From NCBI GenBank assembly GCA_963727485.1, contig CAVSGM010000002.1, positions 1,504,001 to 1,568,000 on the forward strand: a stretch of DNA of 64,000 bases, given 5' to 3'. Below, one piece after another: positions 13,379 through 60,866 of the stretch (the stretch's first letter is position 1; each line of letters begins with the position of its first letter). This DNA is from an uncultured delta proteobacterium (GTDB lineage: Bacteria > Myxococcota > Myxococcia > SLRQ01). Under the pieces are notes generated by a model that was not told the DNA's origin, made no database searches, and was given only the letters and a program-made list of their open reading frames with translations. The translations under genes and the position numbers were made by a program.

Positions 13379-15149
13379 CCGTCGGCGGTGGCCGGGTGCC
13401 GGGGAGATCGCGGTGGGGCTGGTGGCCGCCTCGGTGGTCGCCCTCGCCCTCGTGGTGTTCACCCGGGAGGCCGCCCGGCTCTCCCCGGCCCTGGCGAAGA
13501 TCCTGGTGCAGCAGCTCCAGGTGGCCCTGGGGGACGGGCACCTCTTCGCGCACCCCGGCGACCCCCTGCCCCTGCCCCGGGCCCTGCAGATGCTGTGGCT
13601 GGGTCCGGCGACCACCGCCGAGGCCCTCTTCACCCTGGCCCTCCGCCGCCTCACCGGGACGGTGGCGGCCCTCACCGCCCAGCGCGCCTTCCAGGTGGCG
13701 CTCTTCGAGACCGGGGCCCCGCTCCTCCTCGTCGCCGCCCGGCGCCGGGGGCTGCCCCGGGGCGAGGCCATGGCCCTGGCCCTGCTCTACGCCCTCCAGC
13801 CGGTGGTGCTCACCAAGCTCGCCTGGGACACGGTCCTCCCGGCGGCGCCGCTGGTGATCCTCGCCTACCTCGGGTGGCTGCAGCGGCGCTTCGGCCACTT
13901 CGCCGCCGGGCTCCTCCTCGCCGCCGCCACCCACCCCTTCGCCTTCGCCGGCGCCGCCCTGCTCACCGTTTGGCTGGGCCGGGGCGAGACCGATCCCCGG
14001 GCCCGCCGCGCCCTGGGGCGCACCCGCGTCGCCCTCCTCGCCCTGGGCACGGTCACCGTCTCGGGGGTGGTGCTCCCCGGCCTCCTCTGGCCCCACGGCC
14101 CGACCCTCGCCGGGGCCCTGACCCACGGCCGGACCCTCGTGGGCCTGGTCCGGGAGCCAGCGGGGCGCCTCCTGGGGATCCTCGGCACCAACGCCGCGGC
14201 CATCGGTCTGCTGGTCCTCGCCGCCGGCGGCGGGCTCCTGCGCCGGCCGGGGATGATCTGGGTGGTCGCCCTCGACCTCGGCTACGCCCTCTTCTCCTAC
14301 CAGGGACTCGACCACGGTCTGGTCGGCGCCACCTTCGGGCTGCTGGTGGTCCTGTGCGTCGAGGCCGCCGCCACCCGCCCGGGGCCCGGCGTCCGGTGGC
14401 TCCTCGGGGCCGGGGCGCTGGCGGTGGCGGTGGGCTGGGGCGTCGCCGGGCCCCGGAGCCTCCTCGCCCAGCTGGGCGATCCCGCGCCGCCCCCGGCGCT
14501 CGCCGAGCTCACCGCGGCGCCCCTGCCGGCGCTCGCCGGGCCCTGCGCCGTGGAGGCGACCCTGGTGCCCTACGTCCTCGATCGCTGCCCCGGCGCCCGG
14601 GCCTACGGGGACGGGGCTCAAGGCGATCGGCAAGCCCGGCCCCCGCCGGCGTTCGTCGTGCTGTCGCCGGCGCGCCTCACCGCCCCGGCGGCGGCCTGGC
14701 CCCGGGGGTACCAGGAGCTGCGCCGCCTGGACCGGGACCGCCGGGCGCTGGGGCGGATCCGCGCGGCGATCGCCGCCGGCCACCTGGGGCTGGTCCGGGT
14801 GGCCGGACCCCTGGTGGTCCTGGGCCGGGACCGGGGGCGGCCGGTGCCCCCCTGGATCCCCGCGGCCCTCGACCGGGTCCTCCAGACGGCGCCGGCAGAT
14901 CGGGCCGCCGGCCCACCTCCCGGGCGCGGGCCCGAGGTCACTCGCCGAACACCCGCTCCAGGCGCACCGCCGCGGGCAGGGTCCGCACCGCCTCCATCAG
15001 GGGCCCCCGCGCCCGGCGCCAGAACGCCGCCAGGGGCTCCCCGGGCTCGGTGTCCAGACGCCGTACCGCCGAGGCCAGCTGCCGCAGGGCCGGGGCCAGC
15101 TCCGGCACCGAGATCGGGTCGTTGTCGTAGCGCGGCGCCAGGCAGTTGA
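13371..15149 (+). CDS. Polytopic membrane protein, possibly glycosyltransferase-like (true 3' end uncertain)
   Basis: Many hydrophobic helices. ATG overlaps the radical SAM stop. The last ~70 codons overlap the opposite-strand halogenase and look non-coding. Confidence 0.55.
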   Translation: MASRRRWPGAGEIAVGLVAASVVALALVVFTREAARLSPALAKILVQQLQVALGDGHLFAHPGDPLPLPRALQMLWLGPATTAEALFTLALRRLTGTVAALTAQRAFQVALFETGAPLLLVAARRRGLPRGEAMALALLYALQPVVLTKLAWDTVLPAAPLVILAYLGWLQRRFGHFAAGLLLAAATHPFAFAGAALLTVWLGRGETDPRARRALGRTRVALLALGTVTVSGVVLPGLLWPHGPTLAGALTHGRTLVGLVREPAGRLLGILGTNAAAIGLLVLAAGGGLLRRPGMIWVVALDLGYALFSYQGLDHGLVGATFGLLVVLCVEAAATRPGPGVRWLLGAGALAVAVGWGVAGPRSLLAQLGDPAPPPALAELTAAPLPALAGPCAVEATLVPYVLDRCPGARAYGDGAQGDRQARPPPAFVVLSPARLTAPAAAWPRGYQELRRLDRDRRALGRIRAAIAAGHLGLVRVAGPLVVLGRDRGRPVPPWIPAALDRVLQTAPADRAAGPPPGRGPEVTRRTPAPGAPPRAGSAPPPSGAPAPGARTPPGAPRARCPDAVPPRPAAAGPGPAPAPRSGRCRSAAPGS

Positions 15150-16561
15150 GCTGCCAGTTCTCGGTCTGGAAGAGGCTGGGGGCGGCCGGGTCCCTCGGCT
15201 CCACCAGGAAGAAGAGGCTCGGGGGCCTCGGCCCGTCCTGGTGGCGCAGGTGGAGACAGAGGAAGCCCAGCTCGTCGGGGTCGGCGTCGTCGAGGGCCGG
15301 CCGATCGTCGCCGGTGGCCCGGGCCGCCCGGCTCCGGTGGTCGGCGGTGCGCCGCTCGTCGAGGGCGAGGTTGCGGACCAGGCCGCTGGTGAGCACCAGG
15401 AACGCCTTCTGGGGATCGAGGCGCGGGGCCGTCTCCACCAGGATCTCCTTGGACTCCCAGAAGTAGTCCTCCTTGGCGAGGTTCTGCTGGTAGAAGAACC
15501 GCACGATCCGGGTGAGGTCGTCGAAGAGCGCGCGGTGGGCGGTCTCGTACTCGGCCACCAGCGCCGCCTCCTCGGCCCCCTCGCGCACCAGCCGCACCGC
15601 CGCCCCGGCCACGTGCCAGCCGGCGTGCATCGCCAGGAACACCCCCTGGGAGAGGACCGGGTCGAGGAAGCCCGCCGCGTCACCGGCGAGGAAGTACCCG
15701 GGGCCGGCCACCTGGCGCATCCGGTAGCTCCAGTCCCGCTCGTGGCGGACCTCGGTGACCCGCTCGGCGCCGGGCCCCAGCACCGCCCGGATCTCCTCGC
15801 ACCCCGCCACCGCCGCCTCGAAGCGCCGGGTGCGCTCGGCCTTGTCGGCCTTGTCGTCCTCGTCGAGGCGGACCACGCCCACCGAGGCCGTCTCCGGGCC
15901 CAGGGGGAAGTGCCACAGCCAGTGGCTGCGATCGGCGGCGAAGAGGGCCTGGCGCGCCCGGGGATGGGGCTGGCGGCCGCGGCTGCGGTAGTGGGCCCAG
16001 GCGGCCTGGTGCTCGAGGCCGGGGATGGGCTCGCGGAGCTTCAGGTCCCGGGCCACCACCGCGGCCTGGCCGGTGGCGTCGAGGGTGACCCGCGCCGCCA
16101 CGGTGGTTTCGCCCCCGCCGGCGGGGTCGGCGATCCGGGCGCCCTGGAGGCGGGGGCCGTCCCAGAGCAGGCGGGTGGCCACCGCCCGCTCCCGGACCTC
16201 GGCGCCGGCCCGGCGGGCGGCCTCGAAGAGGATGGCGTCGAACCGCGACCGCTCCACGAACCAGGCGTGGTCGTAGGCCTCGGTCTCCTCGAACCACAGG
16301 TCCCACCGGGGGGTGCGCCCCCAGCGCAGGTGGGTGGAGCCCGACTTGCGCTCGAAGGCGGCCTCCACCTCGGCCAACACCCCCAGCTCGTCGAGGATCG
16401 GCACCACCCCGGGCAGGAGGCTCTCGCCCACGTGGGTGCGGGGGTGCCGCCGGGCCTCGACCAGCACCACCCGGAGGCCGGCGCGGGCGGCGAGGGTGGC
16501 GGCGGTGGACCCGGCGGGACCGCCGCCGAGGACCAGGAGAATCGACCGGGGCCCCGCTCAT
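14938..16561 (-). CDS. Flavin-dependent halogenase-like oxidoreductase (+1 frameshift near 16540)
   Basis: Corrected N-terminus VDLLVLGGGPAGSTAA, HVGESLLP, ERKSG (putative catalytic Lys), WLWHFP, GDAAGFLDPVLSQGV. Confidence 0.85.
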
Positions 16562-18458
16562 CGCCGGGGGGCCCCGGCCGCGAGGAGGGCGGCCAGCGGC
16601 CCGGCCACCGAGGCGAGCAACCGGTCGAGGCGTCCCAGGTCCTCACCGTCGAGATGCTGGCCCTCGTAGGCCGCGGACATCCCCTCCACCTCCTGGTAGC
16701 AGGGGCGGCCGCCGCCGTCCCCGCGCCAGAGGACCACTGCCAAGCGTCCCTGGGGGGCCACCAGCTCGAGGCGGACCTCGGCGTCGTCCACCCGGCCGGC
16801 GGCGGCGAGGACCCAGGCCCCGCCGGTGGCCGTCTCGGTGGCCTCGGAGAGGCGATCCAGGGCGGGGGTGGAAAGCGGCGTCGAGGCCGGGGCCCCGGAG
16901 GTCGCGCCTCCCGGCGCCCCGGCGTCGTGGGCCGCGTCGGGGGCGGGGGCCTCGGGCGTGGGGGGCGGCGCCGGCCAGGGGCCCTGGACCCGGACCCGGG
17001 CCACGGCGTCGCCCGCGGGCACCACCGCCGGCGGCAGGGTCGCCACGGGCCCCCGGTACCGGGCGTAGAGCCGGCCCCATCCCTCGGGCCGGCGCACGGG
17101 GTGGGTGAAGAGCATCAGCTCAGTGTCCAGGTCCACCGAGAGCCGCGCCGGGGCCAGGTTCCACAGGCGCTTGCGCCCCAGGAAGAACACGTCCGGCCAC
17201 CCGGCGTCGAAGTCGAGGACCGAGAGGAGATCCCGGGCCCAGACCTCGAGTCCGCAGGCGAACGCCGTACGGGGATTGGGGGCGGGGGCCTCGGTGAAGG
17301 CGGCCCGGGTTGGGTCGTAGGCGAGGACCCGCGGCGGCAGGGAGGCGTGGTGGAGCACCAGGGCCGCCTGGGGGCGCACCCCCGGCGCCAGAATCCCGCC
17401 CGGCCTGGAGGGCGTGGAGCCCCTTGAAGGTGGTGCGGTTGAACAGGTCCCCGGCCCAGGCCTGGCACCCGGTCTCGAGGCGCGCCCACTCGTCCGCGGT
17501 GAGGGCCGCGTCGCCCGAGAGCGGCCGCGTCCCCATGGGGTTCGCCGGGCGCGGCGCCGGGGCGGCCGGCGACGCCGGCTCGGCGCGGAGGAACGGGGCC
17601 TGGTCCCGCACCGCCACCACCTCGCCCCCGGCCATCACCACCGTCAGCCCCGGGGCCGTCGCCCGCACCGGCTGGCGGAGCCGGGTCCCGACCCGGGTGG
17701 CCACCCGGCCGGGGTCGGCGACGAAGACCGCCTCGCCCAGGGGCCCGAGCGGGCCGGTGGGCCGCAGCCCCTCGCCATTGACCAGGAACTGCGCAGGCCG
17801 GCGCCCGGGGAAGGCCGCAAGGTACTCAGCGACCACCTGCTCGGCCACCGCCCCGTCGGGGTCCTCGTCCCGGGGCAGCCAGGGCCGGAACACCCCCTGG
17901 TCGAGGTCGGGCATCGGCCTCACCCAGACCCCGGGCACGGCAATCTCCCCCAGGACCTCGGCGGCCCAGGCCGGCGGCTGGTGGAGATCCACGGAGGTGA
18001 AGAAGCTGCCGTCGCCCCCGTGGGGCTCGACCACCAGCGGCGCGGTCGCCAGCTCGTTGCCCCCGGTGGGGAGCACCTCGACCGCGGGCGCCAGGGGCCG
18101 GAATCCGCGAATCGCCGAGGTGGCGATCCTCCCCTGGGCGCAGGGCCACCACCTGGAAGCCCAGCTCGGCAACCGCGGCCCGGGCCGCCGCGGAGCTGTG
18201 CGCCGGGAGGTGGATGGGCACCCGACGGTCGAGGAGGGCGAGGCTCGGCAGGTCGAGGTGATCCGGGTGCTCGTGGGAGATCACCACGCCGTCCACCGGC
18301 GGCATCGACGCCAGGTCCAGGTCCCGTCCGGGGTGGAGCGCCATCCGGGTCAGGGGCAGGTGGGCGAGGCCCGGTCGGAGCAGCGGATCGACGAGGAGCC
18401 GGGTGTCGCCGCTGTCGATGAGCCAGCCCTGGTGGCCCAGGGCGGTGACCGTAAACAC
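16558..18458 (-). CDS. Metallo-beta-lactamase-fold protein with long C-terminal extension (+1 frameshifts near 18103 and 17393)
   Basis: LGHQGWLI, LLVDP, SHEHPDH (HxHxDH). Three ORF pieces join after single-base corrections. The stop overlaps the halogenase ATG. Confidence 0.78.
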
Positions 18459-18574: not shown

Positions 18575-20791
18575 ATGGCGGACACCACCGATCTCGTGGT
18601 CATCGGCGGCGGCCCCGCGGGTGGCCTGGTGGCGGCCCTGGTCCGGCAGCAGGACCCGGACCGCCGGGTGGTGCTCCTCGAGCGGGGACGGTTCCCCCGC
18701 CACCACGTCGGCGAGTCGTCGATCCCCTCGTGGCGGCCGATCCTCGAGCGGGCCGGGGTGCGGGAGAAGGTCGACGCCGCCATCCGCACCCGGAAGGTGG
18801 GCACCATCTTCTGGTGGGGCACCAGCGAGGATCGGACCTGGACCATCGACTTCCGCGACACCCGCACCGGCGGCGCGCCCCCGGCGAGCTACCAGCTCGA
18901 CCGCTCGGTCTTCGACCAGGTGCTCCTGGACCACGCCGCCGAGCTCGGGGCCGAGGTGCACCAGGAGGCCACGGTCACCGCGGTGACGCCCCTGGGCTCC
19001 GGGCGCCACCGGGTCACCTGGCAGGCCGGCGACGAGACCCACCACCTCGAAACCGACTACGTGGTCGACGCCTCGGGACAGGCGAGGCTCCTCGCCCGGC
19101 TCTTCCGCCTGCCCCTGGTGGGCTTCGACGACATGAACAACTTCGCCGTGGTCGGCTACTGGCGGGGGAGCAAGCTCGCCCAGTACGACTGGCCGGTGGC
19201 CGAGCACGAGCGCTGGACCTACATCGCCGCCTCCGACGACGGCTGGGTCTGGCACATCCCCCTCGACGGCGACCTCGTGAGCGTGGGGCTGGTAACCGAC
19301 GGAGACTCCCTGCCCAAGGGGGGCGCCTCCGAGCTCGAGGCCCACTACCTGCGCAACGTCCGCGCCTGCCCCCCGGTGGCGGCGCTCCTCGAGGACGCCA
19401 CCCTCGACCGCCACCCCCTGGCCCCCCAGGCCCTGACCACGGTGCGGGACTGGTCCTATCACTGCGAGGAGGCCTGCGGCCCCGGGTGGTTCGTCGCCGG
19501 CGACGCGGCGGTGTTCGTGGATCCGGTGCTCTCCAGCGGGATGCTACTGGCGGCCAACGGCGCGTCCATGGCCGCCAACGCCCTCCACACCCTGTGGCGC
19601 GACCCGGCGGTGGACCCGGCCCTGCTCCGCCGCAGCTACACCGATACCTACCGGGACATGGCCGGCAGCTACCACCGCCTGGCGCGCATCTGGTACGCCC
19701 GGAACTTCAAGGCCTCCACCTGGCACTGGGAGGCCAAGCGCCAGCGGCTGATGGCCGGGGGCCGCGCCGACGCCGAGACCGACGCCCGCGCGTTCCTCGC
19801 CCTCTGCCTCGGCTCGTTCACCAACCCCCTGGAGGCGGCGATCCGCGGGGATCGGGGAGACCTGCTCCGGCCCGACGCCCGGATCTACGCCGGCCACCTC
19901 TTCGCCGACGACGTCCGCGACAATCCCCTCTACGCCGTCCTCGACGACGCCACCGAGACCGGCGCCACCGAGACCGAGACCCGGGCGGCAATCCGGGCCG
20001 ACACCGCCCGGCAGTGGCAGCGGATGCTCCATGCCCGCCCCCGCCTCAATCACTGCACCTGGGAGACCCGGGAGAGCTACGTCACCGACGGGTACCTCAA
20101 TCACTGGGAGCGGGTGCGGCTCATCGAGGTCCGGGCCCGCGCCGAGGACGACGCCTTCGGGCGGGTGATCCTGCCCTCCCCCGAGGTCGCCCGGGACGGG
20201 GTGCTGCCCTTCCTCGACGGGCGGCGCACCCTCGCCGAGGCGCTGGAGGCGGCGGCCGCGGACACCCCGGTGGGCTCCCAGGCCTACGACGAGCTCCTCG
20301 AGGGCCTCCAGTACCAGATCTTCCAGCTCGACTTCCGCTGCTGGCTCGACGGGGTGGCCGAGGCCCCGCCGGCGCCGACCCCCGAGGCCCTGCCCGCGCC
20401 CCTCGAGGCGGTGCTCCGGGGCGAGACCGGCGGGCCGGCGGCGCGCTTGGAGATCGGGCTGCTGGGAGAGACGGCGACGGTGCGCTTCGAGGACGACTCG
20501 GCGCCCTGGACCCTCACCCGCCTCGACCGCTCGCCCGAGGGCTACCGCTACGCCGCCTCGGCGACCACCGCCTTCGCCTACCGGGGCCGTGACCTGGCCC
20601 CCGAGGCCCGGGCGCGCCTCGACGACCTGGTGGCGGCGCTCCGGCGCCTCGAGGCATCGGACCCGGAGGGCGCGGACGGCCTCTGGCCCCGGATCCTCGG
20701 GCCCCGGGCCGGGGAGGTGGTGGCGCCGGCCGCCGCTGCCGAGCTCCCCGACCTCACCGAGCCGCCCCCGGCCGTCGACGGGGTCGGGTGA
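18575..20791 (+). CDS. Flavin-dependent halogenase-like enzyme with C-terminal RRE/PqqD-like region
   Basis: GGGPAG, HHVGES, TRKVG, WVWHIP (WxWxIP), GDAAVFVDPVLSSG; C-terminal FLDGRRTLAEAL. Confidence 0.88.
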   Translation: MADTTDLVVIGGGPAGGLVAALVRQQDPDRRVVLLERGRFPRHHVGESSIPSWRPILERAGVREKVDAAIRTRKVGTIFWWGTSEDRTWTIDFRDTRTGGAPPASYQLDRSVFDQVLLDHAAELGAEVHQEATVTAVTPLGSGRHRVTWQAGDETHHLETDYVVDASGQARLLARLFRLPLVGFDDMNNFAVVGYWRGSKLAQYDWPVAEHERWTYIAASDDGWVWHIPLDGDLVSVGLVTDGDSLPKGGASELEAHYLRNVRACPPVAALLEDATLDRHPLAPQALTTVRDWSYHCEEACGPGWFVAGDAAVFVDPVLSSGMLLAANGASMAANALHTLWRDPAVDPALLRRSYTDTYRDMAGSYHRLARIWYARNFKASTWHWEAKRQRLMAGGRADAETDARAFLALCLGSFTNPLEAAIRGDRGDLLRPDARIYAGHLFADDVRDNPLYAVLDDATETGATETETRAAIRADTARQWQRMLHARPRLNHCTWETRESYVTDGYLNHWERVRLIEVRARAEDDAFGRVILPSPEVARDGVLPFLDGRRTLAEALEAAAADTPVGSQAYDELLEGLQYQIFQLDFRCWLDGVAEAPPAPTPEALPAPLEAVLRGETGGPAARLEIGLLGETATVRFEDDSAPWTLTRLDRSPEGYRYAASATTAFAYRGRDLAPEARARLDDLVAALRRLEASDPEGADGLWPRILGPRAGEVVAPAAAAELPDLTEPPPAVDGVG

Positions 20792-25098: not shown

Positions 25099-28000
25099 AT
25101 GACGTCCCCTCCAACCAAGGTCGCGCCCCCCGAGACCGGGGCCGTGGTGGTCCTGGGGAGCACCGGGCGCCTGGGGCCCGCGGTGCTCCGCGCCCTGGCT
25201 CCCCGGCCGGTGCGGGGCCTCTCCCGTCGCCTCCCGGGCCCCGACGAGGCGAAGGCACCGGTCTTCGTCGAGGCCGACCGCCGGGATCCCGAGGCCCTCC
25301 GCCGGCTGGTGGACGGGGCGGCGGCGGTGGTGGACCTCCTCGCCTTCGACGCCGGGGACGCCGACGCCCTCCTGCAGGCGGTGGCCGCCGCCGACGCGCC
25401 GCCAGGCCACCTGGTCTTCGTCTCCTCGGTCGCCGAGCTCGACCGCCCCCGGCCCGGCGCCCCGGCGGGCCCCGACGGCGCCTACGGCCGGGGCAAGCGC
25501 GCCGCCCGGCGGCGCTACGAGGCCGGCTTCCCCGGGACCGTCCACACCCTGGTGCTCCCGCGCCTGGTCGCCGAGGTCGACCCGGGCCTGCGCGACCGGC
25601 CCTACCTGGAGAGCGCGGCCGGGGGACGGGTCCTGGTCGCCGGGGACGGGTCTCAGCGCCAGACCGTGGCCCCGGTGGTCGGGGTCGCCGAGGTCGTCCG
25701 CCGCCTGGTCGACGACCCGAACGCCCTGCCCCCGGGGCCGGTGGTGGTGGGCCCGCCGGCGCCGGTGACGGTGTCCGAGCTGGTCGAGGCCCTCCTCGCC
25801 GGCGCGGGCCTCGAGGTGCCCCTGGCCCGGCACCCGGACCGGGACTGGCGCGGCCCCCACGGCGGCGGCGACGAGAATCCACGACACCTCGGCCCTCGCC
25901 CGGGCCTTCCCCGACCTCGCCTGGCCCGATCCCCGGGCGGTGAGCCGGCGCCACGGCGCCTGGCTGTGCCGGCACCTCCCCGAGGAAGCGCGGCCCCGGG
26001 ACACGGTGCAACAGCGCCAGAAGGCCTTCCGGGGGCACCGGGTGGTCGACGTCCACGGCGTCCGGGAGCCGCCGGCGCTCGCCGAGCCCCGCCCCGAGCT
26101 CGCCGAGCTCGCCGGGTGGCTCTCGCCGGCCTTCTACGTCGACACCGGCCGCCCCTGCAACGCCGCCTGCCTCTACTGCGCGGTCTCCCCCCACGCGGAC
26201 ACCGAGGGGTTCACGCCGCTCTCACGCTTCGACGACATGATCGCCGCCGGAAAGGCCGCCGGGGCCACCCGGGCGATCCTCATCGGCGGCGAGCCCACCA
26301 TCCACCCCCAGCTCGACGCCCTCCTCGGCCTTCTCGCCGACGCCGGGCTCCCCCGGGGGCACGTGATCATGACCAACGGCCTGCGCCTCGCCGACCCGGC
26401 GCGGGTCGACGCCCTGGTGGCCGGGGGCGTCGAGACCTTCCACCTGTCCATCGACACCGCGGACCCGGCGGTCTACCGGCGCCTCGCTCGCGGTGCCGGG
26501 CGTCTTCAGACCCAGCACCAGGCCCTCGACGGCCTCCTCCGGCGCTCGGAGCTGAACGTCTACGTCTACACCTGCGTCTCCCGGATGAACGCCCCGGGGC
26601 TCGGCGACCTCCTCGCCGACGTCGCTCGCCGGGCCGGGGCCGCCGGCCGGGCCCCGCCCCCGGTGGTCCTGGGCTTCGCCAAGCCCATCGGCGACGGCCT
26701 CACCCACGCCGACGCCCTCATCCCGCCCCCGGCCAATCGGGCCCGCATCGCCCGAGCGGCGGTGGCCGAGGCCGACCGCCTCGGGGTCCCCCTCGGCCTG
26801 CGCAACCTCCAGTCGTGCCTCGCCCCGGAGCTGGTGCGCCGCTCGGTGGACTACTACCTCGAGGACTTCTCGGTGGACCTGGAGCGACGGTCCCGGGTCC
26901 CCTACGCCCACGCCGAGTACTGGCGCCAGGGGGCGCCCTGCCACGCCTGCGCCGACCGGGGGGTGTGCACGGGGATCTACGAGGATGACCTCTCGCGGTT
27001 CGGGGCCGACGCCTTCCGGGCCCTCGCCGAGGACCCGGCCCTGGCGTCGCCGGCGCCGGTGCCCCCCGACGCGCCGCGGGAGGCGCCCGCCCGGGAGGAC
27101 GACGCGCCGGCGGTGGGTGACGCGTGGGAGGCGGGTGACGGACCGGAGGTGGACGACGCGCCGGCGGTGGGGATCCTGCGCCTGGCGGCCGCCGGCCACC
27201 GGCGCTTCCTCCTGCTGACCGAGGACCCGGCCGGCGCGCGCCCCTGCCTTGCCCGGGCCGGGGGCTTCGGCCTCTCCTACGAGGGCACCCTCTCGCCCCC
27301 GGCGCTCCGGGACACGGTGGTGTCCCTGGGCCAGCGCTTCGCCGCCGGGCCCCAGGACCCGGGCCCCCTCGACCGGGCCGTCGACCTGCTCCGCCGGGCC
27401 GCCGGCCCGGGCGCCGACCTCACCGAGGTGCGCCGCCTCCCCCGGGGGCAGCGCCTGGCCCGGTGGTCGCCCCGCCGGCGCCACGCGCCCCCGGCGACGG
27501 GCCCAGCCCTCTGGCCCTTCAATCCCGAGGTCCTGGGCCTCGTGGCGGGGACCCGGCGCCTGCTCAAGCGCGAGGTGGCCCGGGGCGACGACGCCGACAC
27601 CGAGACCGCGCGCCTCGTCGCCCGGGGCCTGGCGGTGCGAGCGGTGGACACCGGGGAGGCGGTGGTGCTCCTCGCCGCGCGGGAGGCCGGGGAGGCCGCC
27701 GCCGCCGAGGACGCCGAGCGCGCCCTGGGCCGGGGCGACGACGCCGACGCGGTCCGGCACCTGGGCGAGGCGCTCGGCTACCCGGCCTGCTGCGTGGCGG
27801 CAATCCAGGACGTGGGCAGCCACGACGACCTCACCCTCCGGGCCACCTGCCTCCCGCCCGCGGGCACGGCCCCGGCGCCGCCCCAGACCCAGTGGCTCCT
27901 CCCCGCCCTGGCCCTGGTGTCCCACGTCCCCTGCGGCCTCGACTGCGCGGCCACCTCGGCCCTGGCCAATCGCCTCCTCGCCGCCCTCGACGCCGACTGC

Positions 28001-28279
28001 CCGGGCTTCGCCGACCGCTGGCGGGCCCTGGCCCGGCGCCTCCACCTGGTGGACCGCGAGGGCCGCGCCTTCTCCCTGGCCCTCGAGCCCGGGCCCCTCG
28101 ACGGCGGCCGGGTGGTGGACGCCCTGCACCTGGCCCTCGACCCCTCGGCCCCGGGCGGGGTCCGCCTGGTGCCCCGGGGCGACCTCGCCGGCGCCCGGGT
28201 GGCGCTCTCGGCGGCGGGCGTGGCCCTCCGGGGGGCCGGCGCCCTCGAGGCCGCCCTCGCCGCCGACCACCGGGGGTAG
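25099..28279 (+). CDS. NAD-dependent epimerase/SDR - radical SAM - Cys-rich (DUF483-like) fusion (+1 frameshift near 25876)
   Basis: GSTGRLG and YGRGK; CNAACLYC, GGEPT, CHACADRGVCTG; LGYPACC and SHVPCGLDC. Removing one A joins the frames as DEIHDTSALARAFP. Confidence 0.75.
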
Positions 28280-30277: not shown

Positions 30278-31828
30278 ATGGAGCCGGACACCCAGGTCGA
30301 GATTCAGCTCGGCCACATGTGCAACAACCGCTGCGTGTTCTGCGTGAGCGGCCAGCGCACCCAGATGCGCATGGCCCGGCCCCTCGAGACCGCCCCCATC
30401 CTCGCGCGCATCGAGGCCGCCCGCGCCGAGGGCCACCGGAAGATCACGCTCCTCGGCGGCGAGCCCACCCTCCAGCCGGGCTTCCTCGAGGTGGTACGCC
30501 GCTGCGTGGCGCTGGGCTTCGAGGAGATCGTCATCTTCACCAACGGGGTGAAGATCGCCCGGGCGGCGTTCATCGACGAGGTGCGCGCCACCGGCGGGCG
30601 CTTCAACTGGCGCATCTCCATCCAGGGCGCCACCAAGGAGAGCCACGAGCGCACCACCGGGCGGCCGGGCTCCTTCGACCGCATCGTCGCCGCCATGGGC
30701 CACCTCGCCGAGCGCGGCGAGAAGCTCACGGTGAACATGTGCGTGGTCGGCTCCAACTACGAGAGCGTCGACCACTTCCCCGACCTCCTCGACCGCTTCG
30801 GGGCCCGGCAGCTCCACCTCGACCTGATGCGCCCCCTCGACGCCGGGGAGCGCACCGACGCCGAGCTCGAGGCGATGATGGTCCCCTACTCGCAGATGGT
30901 CGGGCCCCTGACCCGGATGATCGCGGGCTTCCCCGAAGGCTTCGACGTGAACCTGGGGAACCTGCCGTTCTGCATCGCCCCCGAGCTCGCGCCGTACATC
31001 CACCACGACGGCGAGACCACCTACACGGTGGCCATCGAGGGCGACGACCAGCTCTCGCAGCCCTGGGACAAGTACCAGACCAAGCGCCGGGACAAGTTCC
31101 AGCCGGAGACCTGCCGCCCCTGCCTGTTCCGGGAGAAGTGCAGCGGGGTGTTCGAGCACTACGCGCGCTTCCACGGCACCGCCGAGCTGGTCCCGGTGGA
31201 TGCCGCGCGCCTGCGCCGCGCCGACCCCGGCCTGCGCCTGCTGCCGCTCCATCTCAAGCCGGTGATCGCCGGGCTCAAGGGGTTCCGGCCGCCGCCGCCG
31301 TTCACCGGCCTCGCGGCGAAGGAGACCGCCGACGACGAGGTGACCCTCACCCTCACCGGCCCCGAGCCCCTGGAGGTGGCGCTCCGGCGCCCCGGGGAGG
31401 TTGGGATCTGCGCCTTCGAGGGGATGAGCCTCCACCTCCGGGCGGTCCCCGGCGACCTCGCGGTGGCCCGGGCGGGGCTCGAGGCGCTGGTGGCGGCCCT
31501 GGCGGCCACCTGCGGGGCGCCCGTCCACCCCCTGGGCGACGACGCCCTCGCCCCCCTGCCCCGGACGGTGGCGGCGCGGCTGGGCCGCCTCCGGGGCGCC
31601 GCGCCCTTCCCCGGCCTCGCCTGGACCTCGGTGGCCGCCGCCGGGGGCCGGGTGGAGCTTGGCCTCGCGGATGCCGGCGGCGCCGAGCTGGCCTTCTGGC
31701 TCGCCGAGGAGGCCGGGCGGCCCACCGGGGGCTACCGGGTGGTCTCCGGGGCGCCGGCGCCGGCGGCCATCGAGGGCCTCAAGGCGATGATGGCGGCCCT
31801 GCGGCGGCCCCGCGCCGCGGCCGCCTGA
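30278..31828 (+). CDS. Radical SAM protein (HxsC-like) with C-terminal extension
   Basis: CNNRCVFC, GGEPT, NLPFC, CRPCLFREKCSG. Confidence 0.9.
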   Translation: MEPDTQVEIQLGHMCNNRCVFCVSGQRTQMRMARPLETAPILARIEAARAEGHRKITLLGGEPTLQPGFLEVVRRCVALGFEEIVIFTNGVKIARAAFIDEVRATGGRFNWRISIQGATKESHERTTGRPGSFDRIVAAMGHLAERGEKLTVNMCVVGSNYESVDHFPDLLDRFGARQLHLDLMRPLDAGERTDAELEAMMVPYSQMVGPLTRMIAGFPEGFDVNLGNLPFCIAPELAPYIHHDGETTYTVAIEGDDQLSQPWDKYQTKRRDKFQPETCRPCLFREKCSGVFEHYARFHGTAELVPVDAARLRRADPGLRLLPLHLKPVIAGLKGFRPPPPFTGLAAKETADDEVTLTLTGPEPLEVALRRPGEVGICAFEGMSLHLRAVPGDLAVARAGLEALVAALAATCGAPVHPLGDDALAPLPRTVAARLGRLRGAAPFPGLAWTSVAAAGGRVELGLADAGGAELAFWLAEEAGRPTGGYRVVSGAPAPAAIEGLKAMMAALRRPRAAAA

Positions 31829-32366
31829 CGGCGAAGAGCCAGAGGCCCACCAGGAGCGCCACGGCGAGCGCCACCTGGGCCAGCCAGAATCGCCCGCCGG
31901 GCCGCCGGCGAGAGGGACGCCGCCGAGGGGGACTCCCGCCCTCCGACGGGGTGACTGCCGACGGCCCGCTGCACCCAGAGGCCCTGCACGTCGAGGCGCA
32001 CCACGTTGGCCACCGCCGCGTCGAGGGCCGCCGCCACCTGCGGGCCCGGGTCGAGGGCCTCCACCCGGATGGCGAAGTGGAGGCTCTTCCGAATCCCCGG
32101 GCGCGGCCAGGGGCCGCGGGAGGAGGCGCACCCGGCCCACCACCTGGCCCCCGGCCTTCCGGGTGAGGGTGAAGGTCACCCGGTCCCGGTCGATCGACAC
32201 GTCGCTGTAGACGTAGCCCCCGGGCAGCACCCGATCGCCGCCGGCCTCGCCGAGGAGCCCGGCGATCCGCCCGGCCGCCCCCCGGGGGAATCCCCTGGGC
32301 GATGGCGGGCAGCCCGGCGACGAGGGTGGCGGCGAGGACGAGGCCCCTGGCTTGCTGGCGGGTCAT
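31779..32366 (-). CDS. Exported protein with C-terminal membrane anchor (three +1 insertions scramble the middle of the ORF-track translation)
   Basis: Correcting GAATC to GATC at 32288, 32091 and 31887 gives signal peptide...LPGGYVYSDVSIDRDRVTFTL...RKSLHFAIRVE...IWLAQVALAVALLVGLWLFAVRR. Confidence 0.65.
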   Translation of the reverse strand: MTRQQARGLVLAATLVAGLPAIAQGIPPGGGRADRRAPRRGRRRSGAARGLRLQRRVDRPGPGDLHPHPEGRGPGGGPGAPPPAAPGRARGFGRASTSPSGWRPSTRARRWRRPSTRRWPTWCASTCRASGCSGPSAVTPSEGGSPPRRRPSRRRPGGRFWLAQVALAVALLVGLWLFAVRRPRRGAAAGPPSSP

Positions 32367-32408
32367 GGTTGCGACTAAACAAACGGTGCGTGAGGCCTCG
32401 GAGTCAAG

Positions 32409-46188: not shown

Positions 46189-47435
46189 ATGACCCCTCCT
46201 GCCCGGGCCGGCCGCGCCGGCGCTGCGACCCCGCGACATCACCCTCCCCGAGCCCGGATCCACCACCGCCCGGGAGGTCCTCTCCCGGGCCATCCGGGCG
46301 GTCCTCGGCGACCTGGTGCGCCTCCCGCCGTCGATGTGCCTGACCCCGGCCGGGCGCCGGAGCGCCGAGGGGCTCCAGGCCGCCGTCCGGGCCGCGGCGC
46401 GCCGGCACCCCGGGGCCCTGGCGAGCCTGGTCCGGGACCCCACCGCCGGCGCCCTGGTCCGGGTGCTCCGGGAGCGGCGCGACGGCGAGGGGGATCCGGA
46501 ACGGATCGATCCCCTCTACGGCGAGCTCGCCTGCGTCCTCGGCCTGGGGCTGGCCCGGGCCGGCGCCCTCGAGGCGCCGCTCACCTGCGCCCCGGCCCCG
46601 GCGCGGATCCTCTCCCTGACCCTGCGCCTCTCGCTGCCGCTCCCCGAGGGGACCCGGGCGGTGACCTTCGATCCCACCGGCGCCGTCACCGCCGAGACCG
46701 GCGCCGGCCCGGTGCCGGTGGACCTGTCGACGGCCACCGACCCCTACCACCCCCTCGACGCCGACAGCGTGCTGGCCACCGCCGACAACAACCCCCTGGC
46801 GATGTTCGAGCTCCACCCCGACAAGTCGGGCAACGCCCTGGACCTCGGGGGCCGGGACCCGGCCGAGTGGGTGGCGACGCTCCGGGAGGCCCTCGACCTG
46901 GTCGAGGCCCACCTCCCCGACGCTCCGGGAGGAGATGCGCCTCTTCGTCCGGCAGGTGGTCCCGGTGGGCTATGACGCCGAGCGCCACCTCTCGGCGAGC
47001 TACCAGGAGGCCATCGGCACCCTCTACCTGACCCTCCACCCCCAGCTGATGACCATGACCGAGGCGCTCATCCACGAGTTCAGCCACAACAAGCTCGGCG
47101 CGCTGCTGGAGCTGGACCCGCTGTTGGAGAACGCCTTCCACCCCCTCTACAAGAGCCCGGTGCGCCCGGACCCGAGGCCCCTGCACGGGGTGCTCCTCGC
47201 GGTCCACGCCTTCCAGCCGGTGGCGCGGCTCTACGAGCGGATGATCGAGGCGGACCACCCGCGGGCCCGGTCGGCGGACTTCCGCCGGCGCTACCAGCAG
47301 ATCCTCGCCACCAACCGCGAGGGCGCCGAGACCGTGCTCACCCACGGCGTGCCCACCGAGGTGGGGGCGGCGGTCCTCGACGAGATCCGCCGCTGGGACG
47401 ACCACTATCGGGGCGCCATCTCGTCCCAGCCGTAG
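46189..47435 (+). CDS. aKG-HExxH-type peptide-modifying protein (HEXXH motif domain); frameshifts near 46205 and 46918
   Basis: EALIHEFSHNKL...SPVRPDPRPLHGVLLAVHAF, the signature of HExxH domains associated with radical SAM RiPP systems. Confidence 0.85.
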
Positions 47436-48457
47436 CGGGCGAGGTAGTTCTTCCACACCCCCTCGCACACGGCGTCGTAGCGGCAGGTGGCGCACTCGGG
47501 GCGCTTGGCGCGCTCCACCGCGTCGAGGTCGGACCGGCGCACCTCGAGGAGCTCGGCGTCGCCCCCCTCGGCGAGCGCGTGGGCGCTGGCGGCGTTCGCC
47601 GGGGCCGCGGGATCGGCGACCTCGTAGTGCTTGTAGCGCTCCACGTAGCCCCGGTTGCGATCGGGGATCCCCTCGGTGACGCACAGGGGGATGTCGACGA
47701 GGTAGGCCTGGAGGTCGTCGTCGCCGGCGGCGGCGGCCTCGGCGCAGAAGGCCCGGAACCGGTCGGCGATGTCGGTGTACCGGGGGAAGAGCTGGTCGAA
47801 GTAGGTGTTCGCCCGGCCGTTGGCCTGCATCACGTTGAACACCACCTGGTCGACGCCGTGGCCCCGGAGGAACCGGTAGATGTCGGCGAAGTGCTCGAGG
47901 TTGCGCCGGGTGACCACCGTGGAGGTGTGGAGGCTGACCCCGTGGCGCTTGAGCCTCGCCACGTTGTCCAGGCCCTTCACCGTCTGGACGAAGGCGCCGG
48001 GGGTGCGCACCAGGCCGTCGTGGAGCTTCTTGGTGTGCCCGTGGATGGACACGTAGAAGAAGTTCATCCCCGCCTTCACCAAGGTGGCCAGGTAGGGCAG
48101 GTGCGAGAGGCGCCGGCCGTTGGTCATCACGCTGATGCGCCGGTAGCCGAGCGCCCGGGCCCAGGTGCAGTACTGGGGCAGGCCCCGGACCAGGGTGGGC
48201 TCACCGGAGGTGAAGCAGACCTCCTCGGCGCCGGCGTTGGCCTCGAGGATGTGGCGGATCCGCTCGGGGGTGAGCGCCCCGTTGACCTCCTCCCGGAGCG
48301 CGCGGTCCTCCTCCATGCAGAAGATGCAGTTGTTGTTGCACACGGGCCCGAGGTTGATGTGGACCCGCTCCACGCGCCCCTCGATGCGGCCCGCCACCGA
48401 CGCCTCGGGGGCGAGGGGGACGGGGGCCTGCTGGAGGATGGGGAGGCGCTCGGCCAT
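47405..48457 (-). CDS. Radical SAM protein (HxsC-like)
   Basis: CNNNCIFC, TSGEPT, MTNGRR, DIPLC, CATCRYDAVCEG. Confidence 0.9.
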   Translation of the reverse strand: MAERLPILQQAPVPLAPEASVAGRIEGRVERVHINLGPVCNNNCIFCMEEDRALREEVNGALTPERIRHILEANAGAEEVCFTSGEPTLVRGLPQYCTWARALGYRRISVMTNGRRLSHLPYLATLVKAGMNFFYVSIHGHTKKLHDGLVRTPGAFVQTVKGLDNVARLKRHGVSLHTSTVVTRRNLEHFADIYRFLRGHGVDQVVFNVMQANGRANTYFDQLFPRYTDIADRFRAFCAEAAAAGDDDLQAYLVDIPLCVTEGIPDRNRGYVERYKHYEVADPAAPANAASAHALAEGGDAELLEVRRSDLDAVERAKRPECATCRYDAVCEGVWKNYLARYGWDEMAPR

Positions 48458-48598: not shown

Positions 48599-49180
48599 AT
48601 GAAGAAGGTCGATCGTCGCGACGCCCTGAAGTTCCTCGGTCTTGGCATCCTGGCCGCCGGGAGCGCTCCGCTCCTCGGCGCCCGGCGCGCCGCCGCCGAG
48701 CCCCGGCTCCCCCGGGCCGGCCGCGGGACGCCCAAGGCCACCGTCTCCCGGGACGGCGCCGCCCCGGCGGTCCGCGCTCCCCTCGACACCCCGGTGCCCG
48801 CCGACCCCACCTCGGCCCTGGCGCCGCTGGGCGTCGGCAGCCGCCTCGCCGGCTCGACCATCCTCCGCGTCGACGGCCCCGACCACGGCGCCATCCACGT
48901 GGACCTGCGGGCGGCCGACGGCCACACCTTCCGGGTGGAGATCTGCCGCCACGACGCCGGGGGCCCGGCGCCGGTGACCCGCACCCGTCACTACGACCTC
49001 TTCCTCGCCAACGGCGGCCGCGGGGACAAGCGCACCGACCGGTCCGAGGGCCTGGCGGTCCTGGGGCTCACCGAGGCGCTGCGCCACAACGAGGCGCGCG
49101 CCCGGAAGCTGCCGGTGATGACCATGCGCCGCCGGTGGGCGAGCTTCCGGCCCACCGAGCTCTCCCGCTACGACGGGTAG
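48599..49180 (+). CDS. Tat-exported hypothetical protein
   Basis: MKKVDRRDALKFLGLG twin-arginine signal with AxA-type cleavage; GGAGG ribosome-binding site upstream. Confidence 0.75.
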   Translation: MKKVDRRDALKFLGLGILAAGSAPLLGARRAAAEPRLPRAGRGTPKATVSRDGAAPAVRAPLDTPVPADPTSALAPLGVGSRLAGSTILRVDGPDHGAIHVDLRAADGHTFRVEICRHDAGGPAPVTRTRHYDLFLANGGRGDKRTDRSEGLAVLGLTEALRHNEARARKLPVMTMRRRWASFRPTELSRYDG

Positions 49181-49183
49181 CGC

Positions 49184-51485: not shown

Positions 51486-51803
51486 CTACCAGGACCCGTG
51501 GGACCCGTGCGAGCCGTGGGACCCGTGCGACCCATGCGAGCCGTGCGAGCCGTGGGACCCGTGCGAGCCGTGGGACCCGTGGGAGCCGTGCGACCCGTGG
51601 GAGCCGTGCGAGCCGTGGGAGCCGTGCGAGCCGTGGGAGCCGTGCGACCCGTGGGAGACGTGCTGCGCCAGCAGGCGCCCGCCACCCGGGACCTCACCCG
51701 CCTCGGTCGCGGACGCGGCCTCCTTGGACGAATCCTTCAGCTCGTGCTCCAGCTCGGAGAGCAAACCCTTGGAGCGCTTCTTGTACTTGGGAATCTTTGC
51801 CAT
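51486..51803 (-). CDS. hxsA: His-Xaa-Ser repeat precursor peptide (HxsA-like): 47-aa leader + HVS-(HGS)18-W
   Basis: Direct translation; AAGGGG ribosome-binding site; lies immediately downstream of hxsB. Confidence 0.93.
51492..51662 (-). repeat. 19 tandem 9-bp units encoding His-Xaa-Ser
   Basis: Units CAY-GGS-TCS (first unit CAC-GTC-TCC). Variation among the HGS units is synonymous only. Confidence 0.95.
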
Positions 51804-51828
51804 GAACGGCCCCTTGACGTTCCAGCCC

Positions 51829-53356
51829 CTACGACTCTGCCGGCGACTCTACCACGTCGTCTGCAGGGTCGGAAGTGTGAAGGAAGTGGTCCCGGGGACG
51901 GTTGGTGGTCCACCTACGGAAGACCTCCAGGGTCCCGGGGTCGGCCTCGCCGAGCTTCCCGAAGAGGTAGTCCTGGATGCCCTTGATCGCGTGGCACCAG
52001 GCGCTGTCGCGCATCCGACCGCCCAGGCTCCCCTGGTGCCGGTAGTTGTACTCCGGGGAGATCCCACAGAACGGGTGGTAGGCGCAGTTCACGCAGTCGG
52101 GGCTCGAGTCGAGGATCGAGGCGAGGGTCACCGCCCGGGTGGTCTCGTGCTCCATGAGCGCCTGGTAGCTCGAGGTGTCCACGTGGCCGATGTGGAACAT
52201 GTCGTCCCCCATCTCGTGGAGCATCCGGCCCTCGTCGCTGGTGAAGATGAGCCCGTCGTAGTTGTAGGCGAGCCCGCCGATGCCGGCGCCCGCAGGGGTT
52301 GCGCAGATCGAGGAAGTTCGGGTCCTCGCCGCCGAGGATCTTGGTGAGGAGGATGGCGGCGTAGCGCTCCAGGATCTGGGTGCCCTGGAGGTTGAGCTGC
52401 ACCATGTAGTCGACCGCCTCGGCGTAGAAGTCGAGGTAGGCCCGGCGGTCGTAGTCGACCTTCTGCCCGGTCTTGGCGGCGAAGCCGAAGGGATCGACCG
52501 GGCGGAGGAAGAGGGCCCGGCACCCGAGCTCGACGTAGGTGTCGACAATCTCGCGCGGGTACTTCAGCGCCTCCTTGGTGGTCGTGAGCAGCGCCTCCAC
52601 GTGGTAGAGCGTGGTGTCGAGGCCGCGCTCGGCGTAGGCCTCGTTGATGCGCTTGATCCACTTGGTGGCATGCGAGAAGGCGTCGCCGCCGGGGAGGATC
52701 CGCTGCTTGTTGTGCAGGTGCTTGGGCCCGTCCACCGAGGTGCACATCTGCACCTTGTTGTCGAGGAGGTAGTCGAGCTTCTCCTCGGTCATCAGCGACA
52801 TGTTGGTCACCAGGGTGAACTCGAGGCTCTTGCCGAGGGTCTCGTTCTTCTTCTTGGCGTACTCGATGATGTGCTGCATCACCGGGTAGTTCACCAACGG
52901 CTCGCCGCCCTGGAACTCGAGGGTGACCCAGGGGCTGGTGGTCTCGAAGGCGAGATCCACCATCTTCTCCGCGGTCTCCTTGGACATGTCGGTCTGCGTC
53001 GCCTCCATGCCGGCGCGGCTGGCGTGGCAGTAGACGCAGGTCTCGTTGCACCGCAGGGTGACCACGGCGATGTGGAGGTTGGGGCCGTAGTGCAGGAAGC
53101 GCTGGCGGGCGGCCAGCCGCTGGGCCAGGTCGTCCACGTCGACCTCGGCCCGGAGGAAGTTCTTCTCCTTGAGGGCCTGATAGGTCTCGGAGGTCGGGTC
53201 CAGGCTCCCGTCCACGAAGGCCCGGAACTCCGCGGGCTCGAGGAGGTGGAACTGGCCCACCTGGTTGGTGACCAGGTAGCGCTCCCCCACCACCCGGTAG
53301 CGGAAGAAGGCGGGGAACGCCGGGTCGATCTGCTCCACCTGGGCGAGCTGCCTCAC
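51829..53356 (-). CDS. hxsB: His-Xaa-Ser system radical SAM/SPASM maturase HxsB (+1 frameshift near 52290)
   Basis: [36 protein letters not shown]...YNYDG...[19 protein letters not shown]-terminal RRE-like region; adjacent to the HxS precursor. Confidence 0.9.
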
Positions 53357-53574: not shown

Positions 53575-53577
53575 CGG

Positions 53578-54102
53578 TCAGCCCCCCGCCGCCTGGTCGT
53601 CGCCACCGTCCGCCGGGGGCGGGCCCTTGGGCGCACCCTCCTTGGGGGCCTCGGCCTCGCCCTGCTTGCCGTACTTCTCCTCCCAGCTCATGGCGATGCC
53701 GAGGGGATCCTCGAAGGCGTCGTCGGAGAAGTCCATGTCGCCGGCGAGGTCGTCGAGGCTGGCGGTGCCGGTGGCCCCGGCGAGCGCCTGGGCGGCCACC
53801 GCCTCGATGATCGGCTTGTTGTACTCGGTGATCTCCCGGCGCCAGGCCTGGGACAGGAGCTCGTTGGCGAACTCCCCGGCGAGCGCCGAGAGGTCGTCGG
53901 CGGAGAGGGCCTCGCGCCCCCGGAGCACCACCTGCACGTGGGTCTCGTCGGGCACGTCGAGGAGGACGTAGCACCGGTCGATGAACACGTAGGCGGCGCC
54001 GTAGATGGCGTCGAGGGGGTAGAGGCTGCGCTCGAAGCGCACCTGCACCCGGTTGTCGTCGGCTTCGACCTGGATCTGGTCGAGCCCCTGGTCCTTGTCC
54101 AC
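53578..54102 (-). CDS. hxsD: His-Xaa-Ser system protein HxsD
   Basis: [19 protein letters not shown]...[16 protein letters not shown]...[10 protein letters not shown]; operon position. Confidence 0.82.
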
Positions 54103-56773: not shown

Positions 56774-57042
56774 TCCGGCTTCGGGTCAGTCGGTGTAGGC
56801 CACCGCGACCCAGCGCCCGTACTTCTTCTTGAAAACGGCGACGTAGCCGTGTCCGCCGAGGTCGGCGATGGCCACCCAGGCGTCCTTCAGGTCCAGCTTG
56901 CCGAGGCGGGCCGGCGGCGGGCCGTACTGCTGGACCATGGCGTCGGCCGGGAGCGTCTTCATCCCGTAGAGGGGCAGGCGGGAGAAGTCCTTGCCCTGGA
57001 AGAGCTCGGTGAGCAACTCGTCGACGGTGGGGCCGTCGCCGT

Positions 57043-57756
57043 CAAGTCCGGTGGGCGGAGCCCGAGCGTGGGCCAGGCCTCGTCGGCGCGGCACCGTGGG
57101 CAAGCCCAGGTGATCGAGGATACGGCGGACCACCGCGGGCTCCATGATCACCGCGACGACCTCCACCCTGCCTTGGCACTCGGGGCAGGTGGTGAGGTCG
57201 TGCCCGAAGACGCGCTTCAGCAGGTCGGCCCAGGGTATCCGGCGCTGGCGGACGTCGCTGGGCGGCTCCCAAGGCTGCCCACCGCTCCGGCTCGAGGTCG
57301 ATTGCTCGGGGTTCTGGCCCTTCGGGGGGACGAAGGCGGCCAGCCGGCGCAGGAGGTCGACCGGATCGAGTAGCAGCTGGCTGCGACCATCGCGCAGCGG
57401 CTTTCGCAGGCGATAGTAGACCTCGCCCCGCGTGCCCTCCTCCAGGCGGTGCTCGGCGAAGGGAGGCCGCAGACCGTAGCGCAGGATCCGCTCGAGGCCG
57501 GCCCGGTCATTGGGGTTGAAGGCGACGAGCTGCTCTCCGATGGACCGGCCCAGCTCGGCTGCGAGAACACGCCGTCGGGGAGGAAGCTGTGGAAGTGCAA
57601 GTTGAGGTTGAGTGCGTCGCCGAAGCGCTGGATGCAGGTGATGGAGCCAGCGAGGGGCCGTGCCACCCCGTTGCGACGGGCGCGACGGCAAAGCCAGGCG
57701 AAGAGCACCCGCTGGAAGACTCCGAGGACAGGCGTGACCAGCTCGGGACGCGTCAC
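57043..57756 (-). mobile_element. Degenerate IS91-family (Y2 rolling-circle) transposase fragment
   Basis: QRFGDALNLNLHFH, LRYGLRPPF, WADLLKRVFGHDLTTCPECQG...RILDHLGLP. Frameshifted, N-terminally truncated, internal segments missing. Confidence 0.82.
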
Positions 57757-60530: not shown

Positions 60531-60566
60531 GACGCCCGTTGTACCATCTGCCATCCTGGCTCCGCC

Positions 60567-60866
60567 ATGAGCGACCCCACGCCCCGCGACCGTCTCGCCC
60601 GCCTCATCCGCCCTCTGCCCGTGGACGGACCGTTCCTCAAGCAGTGGCGGGTGGGCGCCGTCGAGGGCGACGCCGAGGGGCTGAAGGTGACCCTCGACCA
60701 CCCGACCTACGGCCCGGTGGCCCTCGAGATCGCCCGGGCCTCCGGCGCCCCGGCCTTCGCCCGGACCAACCACTTCGAGGTGCGCCATGGCGCCGGCGGG
60801 CTCACCGAGCGGCAGCAGGACGCGGTGCGGACCCTGGTCCGGGCGATCCTCGCAAACGGGATGTGA
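60567..60866 (+). CDS. Small hypothetical protein (stand-alone copy of the recurring beta-sheet/helix module)
   Basis: MSDPTPRDRL...AFARTNHFEVRHG...AVRTLVRAILANGM; codon usage fits the rest of the window. Confidence 0.65.
   Translation: MSDPTPRDRLARLIRPLPVDGPFLKQWRVGAVEGDAEGLKVTLDHPTYGPVALEIARASGAPAFARTNHFEVRHGAGGLTERQQDAVRTLVRAILANGM

Follow-up and report, generated by a model that had tools for sequence, protein, structure and literature searches.

The four-gene HXS system (HxsA/B/C/D) is an anti-phage system that blocks the entry of phage DNA; in Escherichia coli its defence requires HxsA in the periplasm. HxsA alone among the products is known to pass through the membrane, by a route that the paper leaves open, and this canonical HxsA combines a signal peptide with a peptidoglycan-binding domain (PMC13128918, Li et al. 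2026). The window analyzed here, a stretch of 64,000 nucleotides from an uncultured delta proteobacterium of the Myxococcota (contig CAVSGM010000002.1), encodes an enlarged His-Xaa-Ser (HXS) system whose precursor HxsA4 has neither of these two features; compared with the four-gene system (TIGR03976-03979), it adds approximately 12 radical SAM genes around HxsA4, HxsC4, HxsB and HxsD, and a small protein module that recurs in nine copies on eight window proteins (Table 1). The text of PMC13128918 contains no match for "RRE" or "Myxococc", and the accessible part of PMC9062424 mentions HxsB and HxsC with no such module. The module probably has an interaction or docking role; that it docks onto the His-Gly-Ser (HGS) repeat peptide HxsA is a reading to which we assign a probability of roughly 0.45.

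Among peptide-maturation clusters in general, the RRE/PqqD domain (PF05402) is small and occurs either stand-alone or fused to unrelated tailoring enzymes, and its fold consists of three strands followed by three helices. The window module resembles the RRE in its small size and in its occurrence alone or on unrelated tailoring enzymes; in contrast to the RRE, some copies belong to exported proteins or stand in arrays, and the element order predicted for each copy (a helix, four to five strands, then just one helix at the C-terminus) differs from that of the RRE. Among 66 family members, PqqD was not matched in Pfam or NCBIfam, and an RRE/PqqD chain was not among the listed fold matches. What is new here is an uncatalogued domain with an inferred RRE-like role on a different fold; the HXS system itself is known, and appears in expanded form.

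Table 1. Module-bearing genes and core HXS genes of the window (positions within the 64,000-nucleotide stretch).
Feature	Position	Strand	Remarks
M3, in flavin-dependent halogenase/hydroxylase-like enzyme 1 (Hal1)	14938..16557	-	C-terminal module ~15040-15270
M5, in metallo-beta-lactamase-fold (MBL) gene	16558..18458	-	Three frames; terminal module ~16573-16833
M4, in flavin-dependent halogenase/hydroxylase-like enzyme 2 (Hal2)	18575..20791	+	C-terminal module ~20429-20668
M6, in short-chain dehydrogenase/reductase (SDR) + radical SAM gene	25099..28279	+	Frameshifted; reads in frame into module ~27122-27352, then DUF483-like region
M7a and M7b, in HxsC-like radical SAM	30284..31828	+	Tandem modules ~31241-31513 and ~31562-31807
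M8, membrane protein	31782..32366	-	Signal peptide, module ~31993-32236, C-terminal membrane anchor; frameshift near 32081-32100
HxsC4 radical SAM	47405..48448	-	NF038332, 546.7 bits (cutoff 500); core, without module
M2, Tat protein	48599..49180	+	Twin-arginine signal, module ~48821-49102, NxGxG loop, conserved C-tail
HxsA4 precursor	51486..51803	-	NF038313, 120.5 bits (cutoff 55); signal-less leader, 19 His-x-Ser repeats, Trp; proposed ligand
HxsB radical SAM	51829..53350	-	TIGR03978, 387 bits for N-terminal piece (cutoff 370); core, frameshifted, without module
HxsD	53578..54102	-	TIGR03976, 60.8 bits (cutoff 50); core, without module
M1, "Solo"	60567..60866	+	Stand-alone 99-amino-acid protein, single module ~60609-60863; third-codon-position GC 0.95

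An earlier note on this DNA had proposed that a module of about 70-80 amino acids (aa) recurs in eight otherwise unrelated proteins, possibly twice in the radical SAM protein at 30284, and had called the similarity weak. The nine segments almost certainly form one domain family, with two copies in the 30284 protein (M7a and M7b) recognized by profile alignment and in a tandem structure model; each is indeed a single domain, of approximately 85-95 aa including an N-terminal helix or linker and thus longer than proposed. Eleven of the twelve quoted sequence motifs that were searched were recovered in place, and the remaining one, DRKSLHF, had been stitched across the M8 frameshift at ~32081-32100 and does not lie in one frame. 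The similarity is weak at the level of single sequences, where M5 and M6 are the only window segments linked directly (phmmer E values of 0.002-0.015), and homology was therefore tested with profiles. The final hidden Markov model (HMM) was built without any window sequence and searched against 33,260 open reading frames (ORFs), half of them reversed decoys, the set comprising stretches of 10 relatives, 159 HxsC4-bearing loci, 40 further stretches and the rest of the window's own genome. In its third round this HMM recovered M1 (4e-12), M2 (1e-7), M6 (0.004), M3 (0.02) and M4 (0.02); the second half of M8 scored approximately 1, M5 and M7 fell below reporting (E of at least 30), and no reversed decoy was found at E<=0.1. 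Since a histidine-kinase-like ORF of the same genome also scores 0.02, an E value near 0.02 is borderline when taken alone. Iteration seeded with M5 only reached M1 (1e-7) and M4 (0.002) before inclusion of either, and iteration seeded with M2, with window sequences barred, reached M1 at 9e-6; M2 and M5 were the only seeds to expand in the first database, and M1, M3, M4, M6, M7a, M7b or M8 alone did not. MAFFT-based rounds drifted, and M4 and M5 were lost in later rounds.

Profile-profile alignment (HHalign) separated the module-bearing proteins from the remainder of the window. Among 36 window genes or gene pieces, the window-free profile matched Hal1, the MBL C-terminus, Hal2, the SDR-radical SAM protein, the 30284 radical SAM protein (two copies), both pieces of the membrane-protein gene, the Tat protein (1.2e-14) and Solo at E<0.005, together with one extra 36-column match in a B12-binding domain (~24700-24800); the other 26 gave E values of at least 0.07, and the best value of a reversed profile was 0.03. 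After removal of the rows shared between segment alignment and profile, seven segments retained scores from 6e-12 to 2.2e-4 (M1 6e-12, M3 8e-7, M4 9e-6, M6 1.5e-5, M5 4e-5, M7a 7e-5, M7b 2.2e-4), compared to 2.7e-4 for the best of 127 control windows, which was the B12-binding match, and 0.028 for the next. The sequence score of M7b is no better than that of this best control, and its assignment therefore rests on structure; the B12-binding N-terminal match itself covers a strand and a helix only, and is a probable false positive. Shared rows had inflated the pairwise M5-M7a alignment (1e-9, and 4e-3 after cleaning). Among 41 Hal1 orthologues, 7 score at or below 0.01 and 23 at or below 0.1, and two of four M7a orthologues score at or below 0.005; none of the reversed sequences in this test score. 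An intact M8 orthologue (L250:342-1091) aligns with each of the two window pieces, at 6e-13 and 2e-7, and scores 1.6e-7 against an alignment (A2) that excludes it; because this orthologue belongs to the family, the frameshifted M8 is placed there as well.

The family is uncatalogued; it has no Pfam, NCBIfam or PHROG model. Pfam and NCBIfam yielded no family over any window segment at E<=0.01, and these two and PHROGs gave single-member chance matches only on 66 members. The best hit of a PDB sequence search had an E value of 0.3; the ESM Atlas gave no usable match for Solo and, for the database protein P0003, one lead at 0.76 to an automatically named twin-arginine cluster without Pfam assignment, and tblastn of P0003 against phages and plasmids gave no match. 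A description of the module was not found in the literature searched, which mostly left out subscription papers and supplements.

Structure models extend the family relationship to the level of the fold, which is predicted to be a small antiparallel sheet on a C-terminal helix. The AlphaFold2 model of Solo (66 family rows) has a predicted local distance difference test (pLDDT) value of 87 and places strands at residues 16-24, 27-33 and 40-46, a two-residue strand, a strand at 59-63 and a helix at 70-87. The M7 tandem model (8 rows, own orthologues only; pLDDT 93) contains two copies of a helix, strands and a helix in the same predicted element order as Solo, so that the modelled segments are not predicted to have unrelated folds. 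Among the VIA structural matches of these three predicted copies, KA1 domains were the most frequent top matches (Z 5.0-7.3), with TBP-like chains lower: M7b matched 5iri (Z 7.3, root-mean-square deviation 2.7, 78 aligned), M7a matched 4eai (7.3, 3.3, 81), and Solo matched 4eai (5.7, 3.6, 72) and, at its best Z of 5.9, connectase. All of these Z values are <8, below the kinship level of the tool, with identities of at most 15%, and Foldseek searches against PDB and viral libraries returned nothing at E<=0.001; only an arrangement is loosely shared with the KA1/TBP-like fold (AMPK 4eai, SAD-B 5iri, METTL16 6m1u, Chk1 5wi2, TBP 1mp9).

The module is restricted to expanded HXS systems, where it sits on accessory and not on core proteins. 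A search of 1.84 billion representatives with the profile gave 1,729 clusters at E<=0.001; the best 150 of these are mostly proteins of 110-290 aa with a twin-arginine (RR) signal, plus arrays of six, five and four copies. In a survey of 401 sampled genomes of the phylum, in which 12 candidates per genome were scored and related genomes are not independent, the module was found in 28 and HxsB in 62, and the tie to HXS systems proposed in the earlier note is borne out by the 21 module carriers with HxsB (21/28, against a background of 62/401). Of the 21 carriers with best E<1e-6, 19 have HxsB, and the other two genomes are 79% and 70% complete, one of them with an HGS precursor; the seven carriers without HxsB comprise five weak matches (3e-5 to 8e-4) and two incomplete genomes. 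The 18 genomes whose canonical HxsB scored highest were all without the module. Module genes directly adjoin hxsB in several genomes (G002, G031, G052), and one copy was found in a locus labelled Elusimicrobia (L109). The module flanks radical SAM and B12-radical SAM domains on either the N- or the C-terminal side and also accompanies DUF483, nitrogenase-like PF00148 and flavoenzyme domains. The label "halogenase" for the two window enzymes derives from NCBIfam matches below cutoff, and the protein-modifying flavoenzyme models QhpG, LodB and GoxB match below cutoff as well. The proposed presence on both sides of the membrane was also recovered, since the module is carried by cytoplasmic enzymes as well as by RR-signal, lipobox-like (lipoprotein) and transmembrane (TM)-anchored proteins. 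The further suggestion that it ties the genes into one system stands for accessory genes and not for the whole, because it is missing from the core maturases HxsB, HxsC, HxsC4 and HxsD; BLAST with eight core genes gave 358 hits, none with a module, and no kinship between HxsD and the module was found by HHalign (E 0.04-0.07). Two unusual forms were observed in passing: a nitrogenase-component-1-like protein (PF00148) whose module is N-terminal, encoded at an HxsC4 locus (L197:6792-8645), and the database proteins P0002, P0009, P0010 and P0126, which consist of modules only (6, 4, 5 and 2 in tandem), the three long arrays appearing acidic.

A second pattern concerns the precursors, which fall into two classes, with either a hydrophilic or a hydrophobic, signal-like leader. 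The leader of the signal-less class was hydrophilic in 37 of 40 inspected cases (maximum 15-residue hydropathy at most 0.87 in 30 measured; 0.12 in the window HxsA4, a 105-aa protein of leader and repeats), and that of the signal-like class was hydrophobic in 30/30 (at least 0.97), with 16 twin arginines, 13 RK, RG or KK variants and one canonical HxsA. In a comparison of 80 hand-picked genomes, chosen by HxsC4 or HxsB similarity, the RR-protein profile matched all 40 genomes with signal-less HxsA4, 3 of 30 with signal-bearing precursors and none of 10 without a precursor match; the three exceptions are without the NxGxG loop and tail, one being TM-anchored (G231) and the other two cut by contig ends. 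The culturable strains Chondromyces apiculatus DSM 436 and Nannocystis exedens DSM 71 encode an RR protein together with a signal-less HxsA4. The RR motif was present in 25/25 NxG-type ORFs in the loci and in 97/129 Met-starting database proteins. In the family of the window Tat protein (48599), the N-terminal twin arginine and the hydrophobic stretch behind it, as recognized by regular expression, are conserved (R6 and R7 at least 90% in 100 rows), and a short-read contig covers 48807-49160 with one difference and no gap. This protein is a candidate export partner of HxsA4, and the pairing of RR proteins with signal-less precursors is consistent with a signal that moved from the peptide to the module protein, without amounting to statistical proof.

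The twin-arginine module protein could carry signal-less HxsA4 across the membrane by hitchhiking through twin-arginine translocation (Tat), a proposal somewhat less likely to hold than not; it would provide a concrete candidate answer to how signal-less HxsA4 could reach the periplasm. A comparable arrangement of signal-bearing helper and signal-less passenger in one locus is found in the Streptomyces tyrosinase, where MelC2 hitchhikes on MelC1 via Tat (PMC2758597); the analogy is one of arrangement only, since the MelC proteins are unrelated to the module proteins and, in the HXS case, it is a modified repeat peptide that would be carried. Among the precursors themselves, some have 35, 59 and 60 His-x-Ser repeats (L227, from G163:C104, and L259, from G405), and two stand in tandem in G163 and in G428. 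A short N-terminal motif (Pro, aromatic/aliphatic, basic, then Leu-Ser/Thr, Glu) seems to be common to HxsA leaders of both classes, and may be where the core maturases recognize the precursor.

Of the possible readings of the fusion pattern, docking or recognition is the most economical: the module is joined promiscuously to many unrelated catalytic domains, which would mark it as a recruiting domain. The repeat peptide would be its simplest ligand, because it is present on both sides of the membrane and suits tandem arrays; enzyme-free arrays of four to six copies would suit a repetitive ligand. Modules on the variable tailoring enzymes would then recruit these enzymes to HxsA as their substrate. 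If the module binds HxsA, it would be an RRE analogue on a different fold and possibly a portable tag for enzyme targeting; it also marks which orphan radical SAM, B12 and flavin enzymes of myxobacteria belong to expanded HXS systems, including satellite genes. In its fullest form, this proposal describes a second, structurally unrelated substrate-recognition class for ribosomally synthesized and post-translationally modified peptides that reads modified HGS repeats, so that a single peptide serves dozens of radical SAM, B12 and flavin enzymes, and the signal has moved to the module protein, by which the matured peptide is Tat-exported as a likely periplasmic defence polymer; this composite is rather doubtful. 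A complex prediction for the Tat-protein module (A3) with the HxsA4 leader and six repeats scored 0.02 with an uncertain partner fold, and is counted neither way.

Several observations weigh against docking onto HxsA and its extension to export. The family has no invariant residue and a mean column identity of 27%, which is hard to square with a single conserved ligand; the predicted short fourth strand is missing from the M7b model, and the M4 region is degenerate in its one full orthologue (E 0.28). Many HXS genomes with HGS precursors are unmatched by the module (for example 0/4 in family f16, and G269), and, conversely, module-bearing enzymes are encoded far from any HxS peptide gene, as at C1:500768 and C2:~401000 of the window's own genome. 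The core maturases work without the module, and the GT-C-like and prenyltransferase-like membrane enzymes of the cluster could point to a non-peptide product. As a caveat to the export pattern, the genomes behind the 40/40 count were preselected by HxsC4 or HxsB similarity, and an HxsB tree of 28 genomes (18 vs. 10 rows) groups the signal-less systems in one clade, with a single change and support of 100/99; the 40/40 count thus represents a single evolutionary event. A quick version of the HxsC4 tree needs two changes. The satellite genes of the window's own genome (G000) include a cluster at C2:~393000-405000, in which a B12-like enzyme, frameshifted and ending in a module, is accompanied by a double radical SAM and a DUF483-like gene, and near which no HxS peptide gene was found; a radical SAM gene that is frameshifted and has its module at the N-terminus (C1:499698-501460); and, 150 kb from the latter, a second, apparently orphan hxsB (C1:650873-652273).

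The distribution of the module on accessory and not core enzymes would also suit an assembly tag that binds a core protein (HxsC, HxsC4 or HxsD), itself or a membrane-anchored copy, and holds together a multi-enzyme membrane complex with no contact to the peptide. The TM-anchored, lipoprotein-like and tandem-array forms are scaffold-like, and the nearest folds, KA1, adaptin appendage and BamC, are interaction modules; yet exported copies would be apart from the cytoplasmic enzymes, and the pairing of the RR version with signal-less precursors is left unexplained, which makes this alternative unlikely. Less likely still, the module would bind a non-peptide intermediate (lipid-linked, a sugar or a small molecule) from a cell-envelope pathway that is only a companion of the HXS core; the GT-C-like proteins (DUF2079 and PMT_2 matches), a prenyltransferase-like ORF recognized by eye, the B12 enzymes and a surface protein in the cluster speak for such a pathway, as do the satellite copies far from hxsA, whereas the module is strongly linked to genomes with HxsB and HGS peptides, and an 85-residue open sheet with one helix offers no obvious tunnel in the predicted element order.

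Gene shuffling has evidently touched individual copies. The MBL orthologue in L065 stops before the module, the gene after MBL in L065 and L246 is a B12-radical SAM ending in a module, and the closest relative of M5 is such a B12-radical-SAM C-terminus and not MBL; since the window's own genome has no close homologue of this B12 enzyme, M5 probably originated by deletion and fusion. Six SDR-radical SAM orthologues stop before M6, which is the N-terminal part of a DUF483-like protein encoded by a separate gene in L205. Solo begins exactly at the module boundary, with no clear ribosome-binding site seen, and is a protein predicted from sequence; the idea that it split off from the tail of the B12 enzyme at 22595-24943 does not hold, as 14 close orthologues of that enzyme are without the module and a module-bearing paralogue with its own copy is present elsewhere in the genome. 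Together with the degenerate M4 orthologue and the origin of M5, the start of Solo at the module boundary could suggest that many copies are decaying passengers of shuffling and that the RR-type protein alone is functional; conservation of M3 (48-64% identity in 41 orthologues) and M7 (46-52% in 4), and retention of the module in 13 of 32 B12-like homologues, render this very unlikely. Least probable is a KA1-like membrane-targeting domain for anionic phospholipids, which the structural matches would suggest; KA1 (PF02149) has a basic surface for anionic lipid or RNA, and the module is without this bias (whole-domain net charge, as distinct from surface patches, has a median of 0 in 107 fused copies, with 18% at +3 or more), in addition to the Z values below 8 and the lack of a Pfam KA1 match among 66 members.

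Further features of the locus concern its assembly and gene content. The genome (5.55 Mb; 93% complete; 74.6% GC in the window) shares its HXS core, in which HxsA4, HxsC4, HxsB and HxsD all exceed their NCBIfam cutoffs and identify an HxsA4/HxsC4-type system, with relatives mostly labelled Myxococcota or Polyangia. Frameshifts affect many genes of the window. Near-identical short-read contigs differ from it by single-base indels at 46198, 49857 and 50063, and a contig less close in sequence does so at 50383, so that assembly error is the likely cause, in a comparison that did not cover the frameshifts of the MBL and membrane-protein genes. An aKG-HExxH-type peptide beta-hydroxylase gene (46316-47435, frameshifted; TIGR04267, 92 bits, cutoff 40) is convergent with hxsC4, which supports a peptide substrate for the cluster. 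A 1044-aa secreted protein (34403-37537) combines Ig/FN3-like repeats, a Gly-rich linker, Cys-Cys and a hydrophobic-basic C-terminal tail that we take to be MYXO-CTERM-like; its orthologue in G128 lies upstream of the same two radical SAM genes. The ORFs at 11565-12374, 13380-15149 and 32282-34213 encode a prenyltransferase that looks UbiA-like by eye and two membrane proteins of GT-C-like type, and the 32282 gene adjoins the membrane module gene in L250 too. Finally, a transposase-like remnant, also recognized by eye, lies at 56786-57756 between a laminin-B-domain gene and the B12 radical SAM at 58224.

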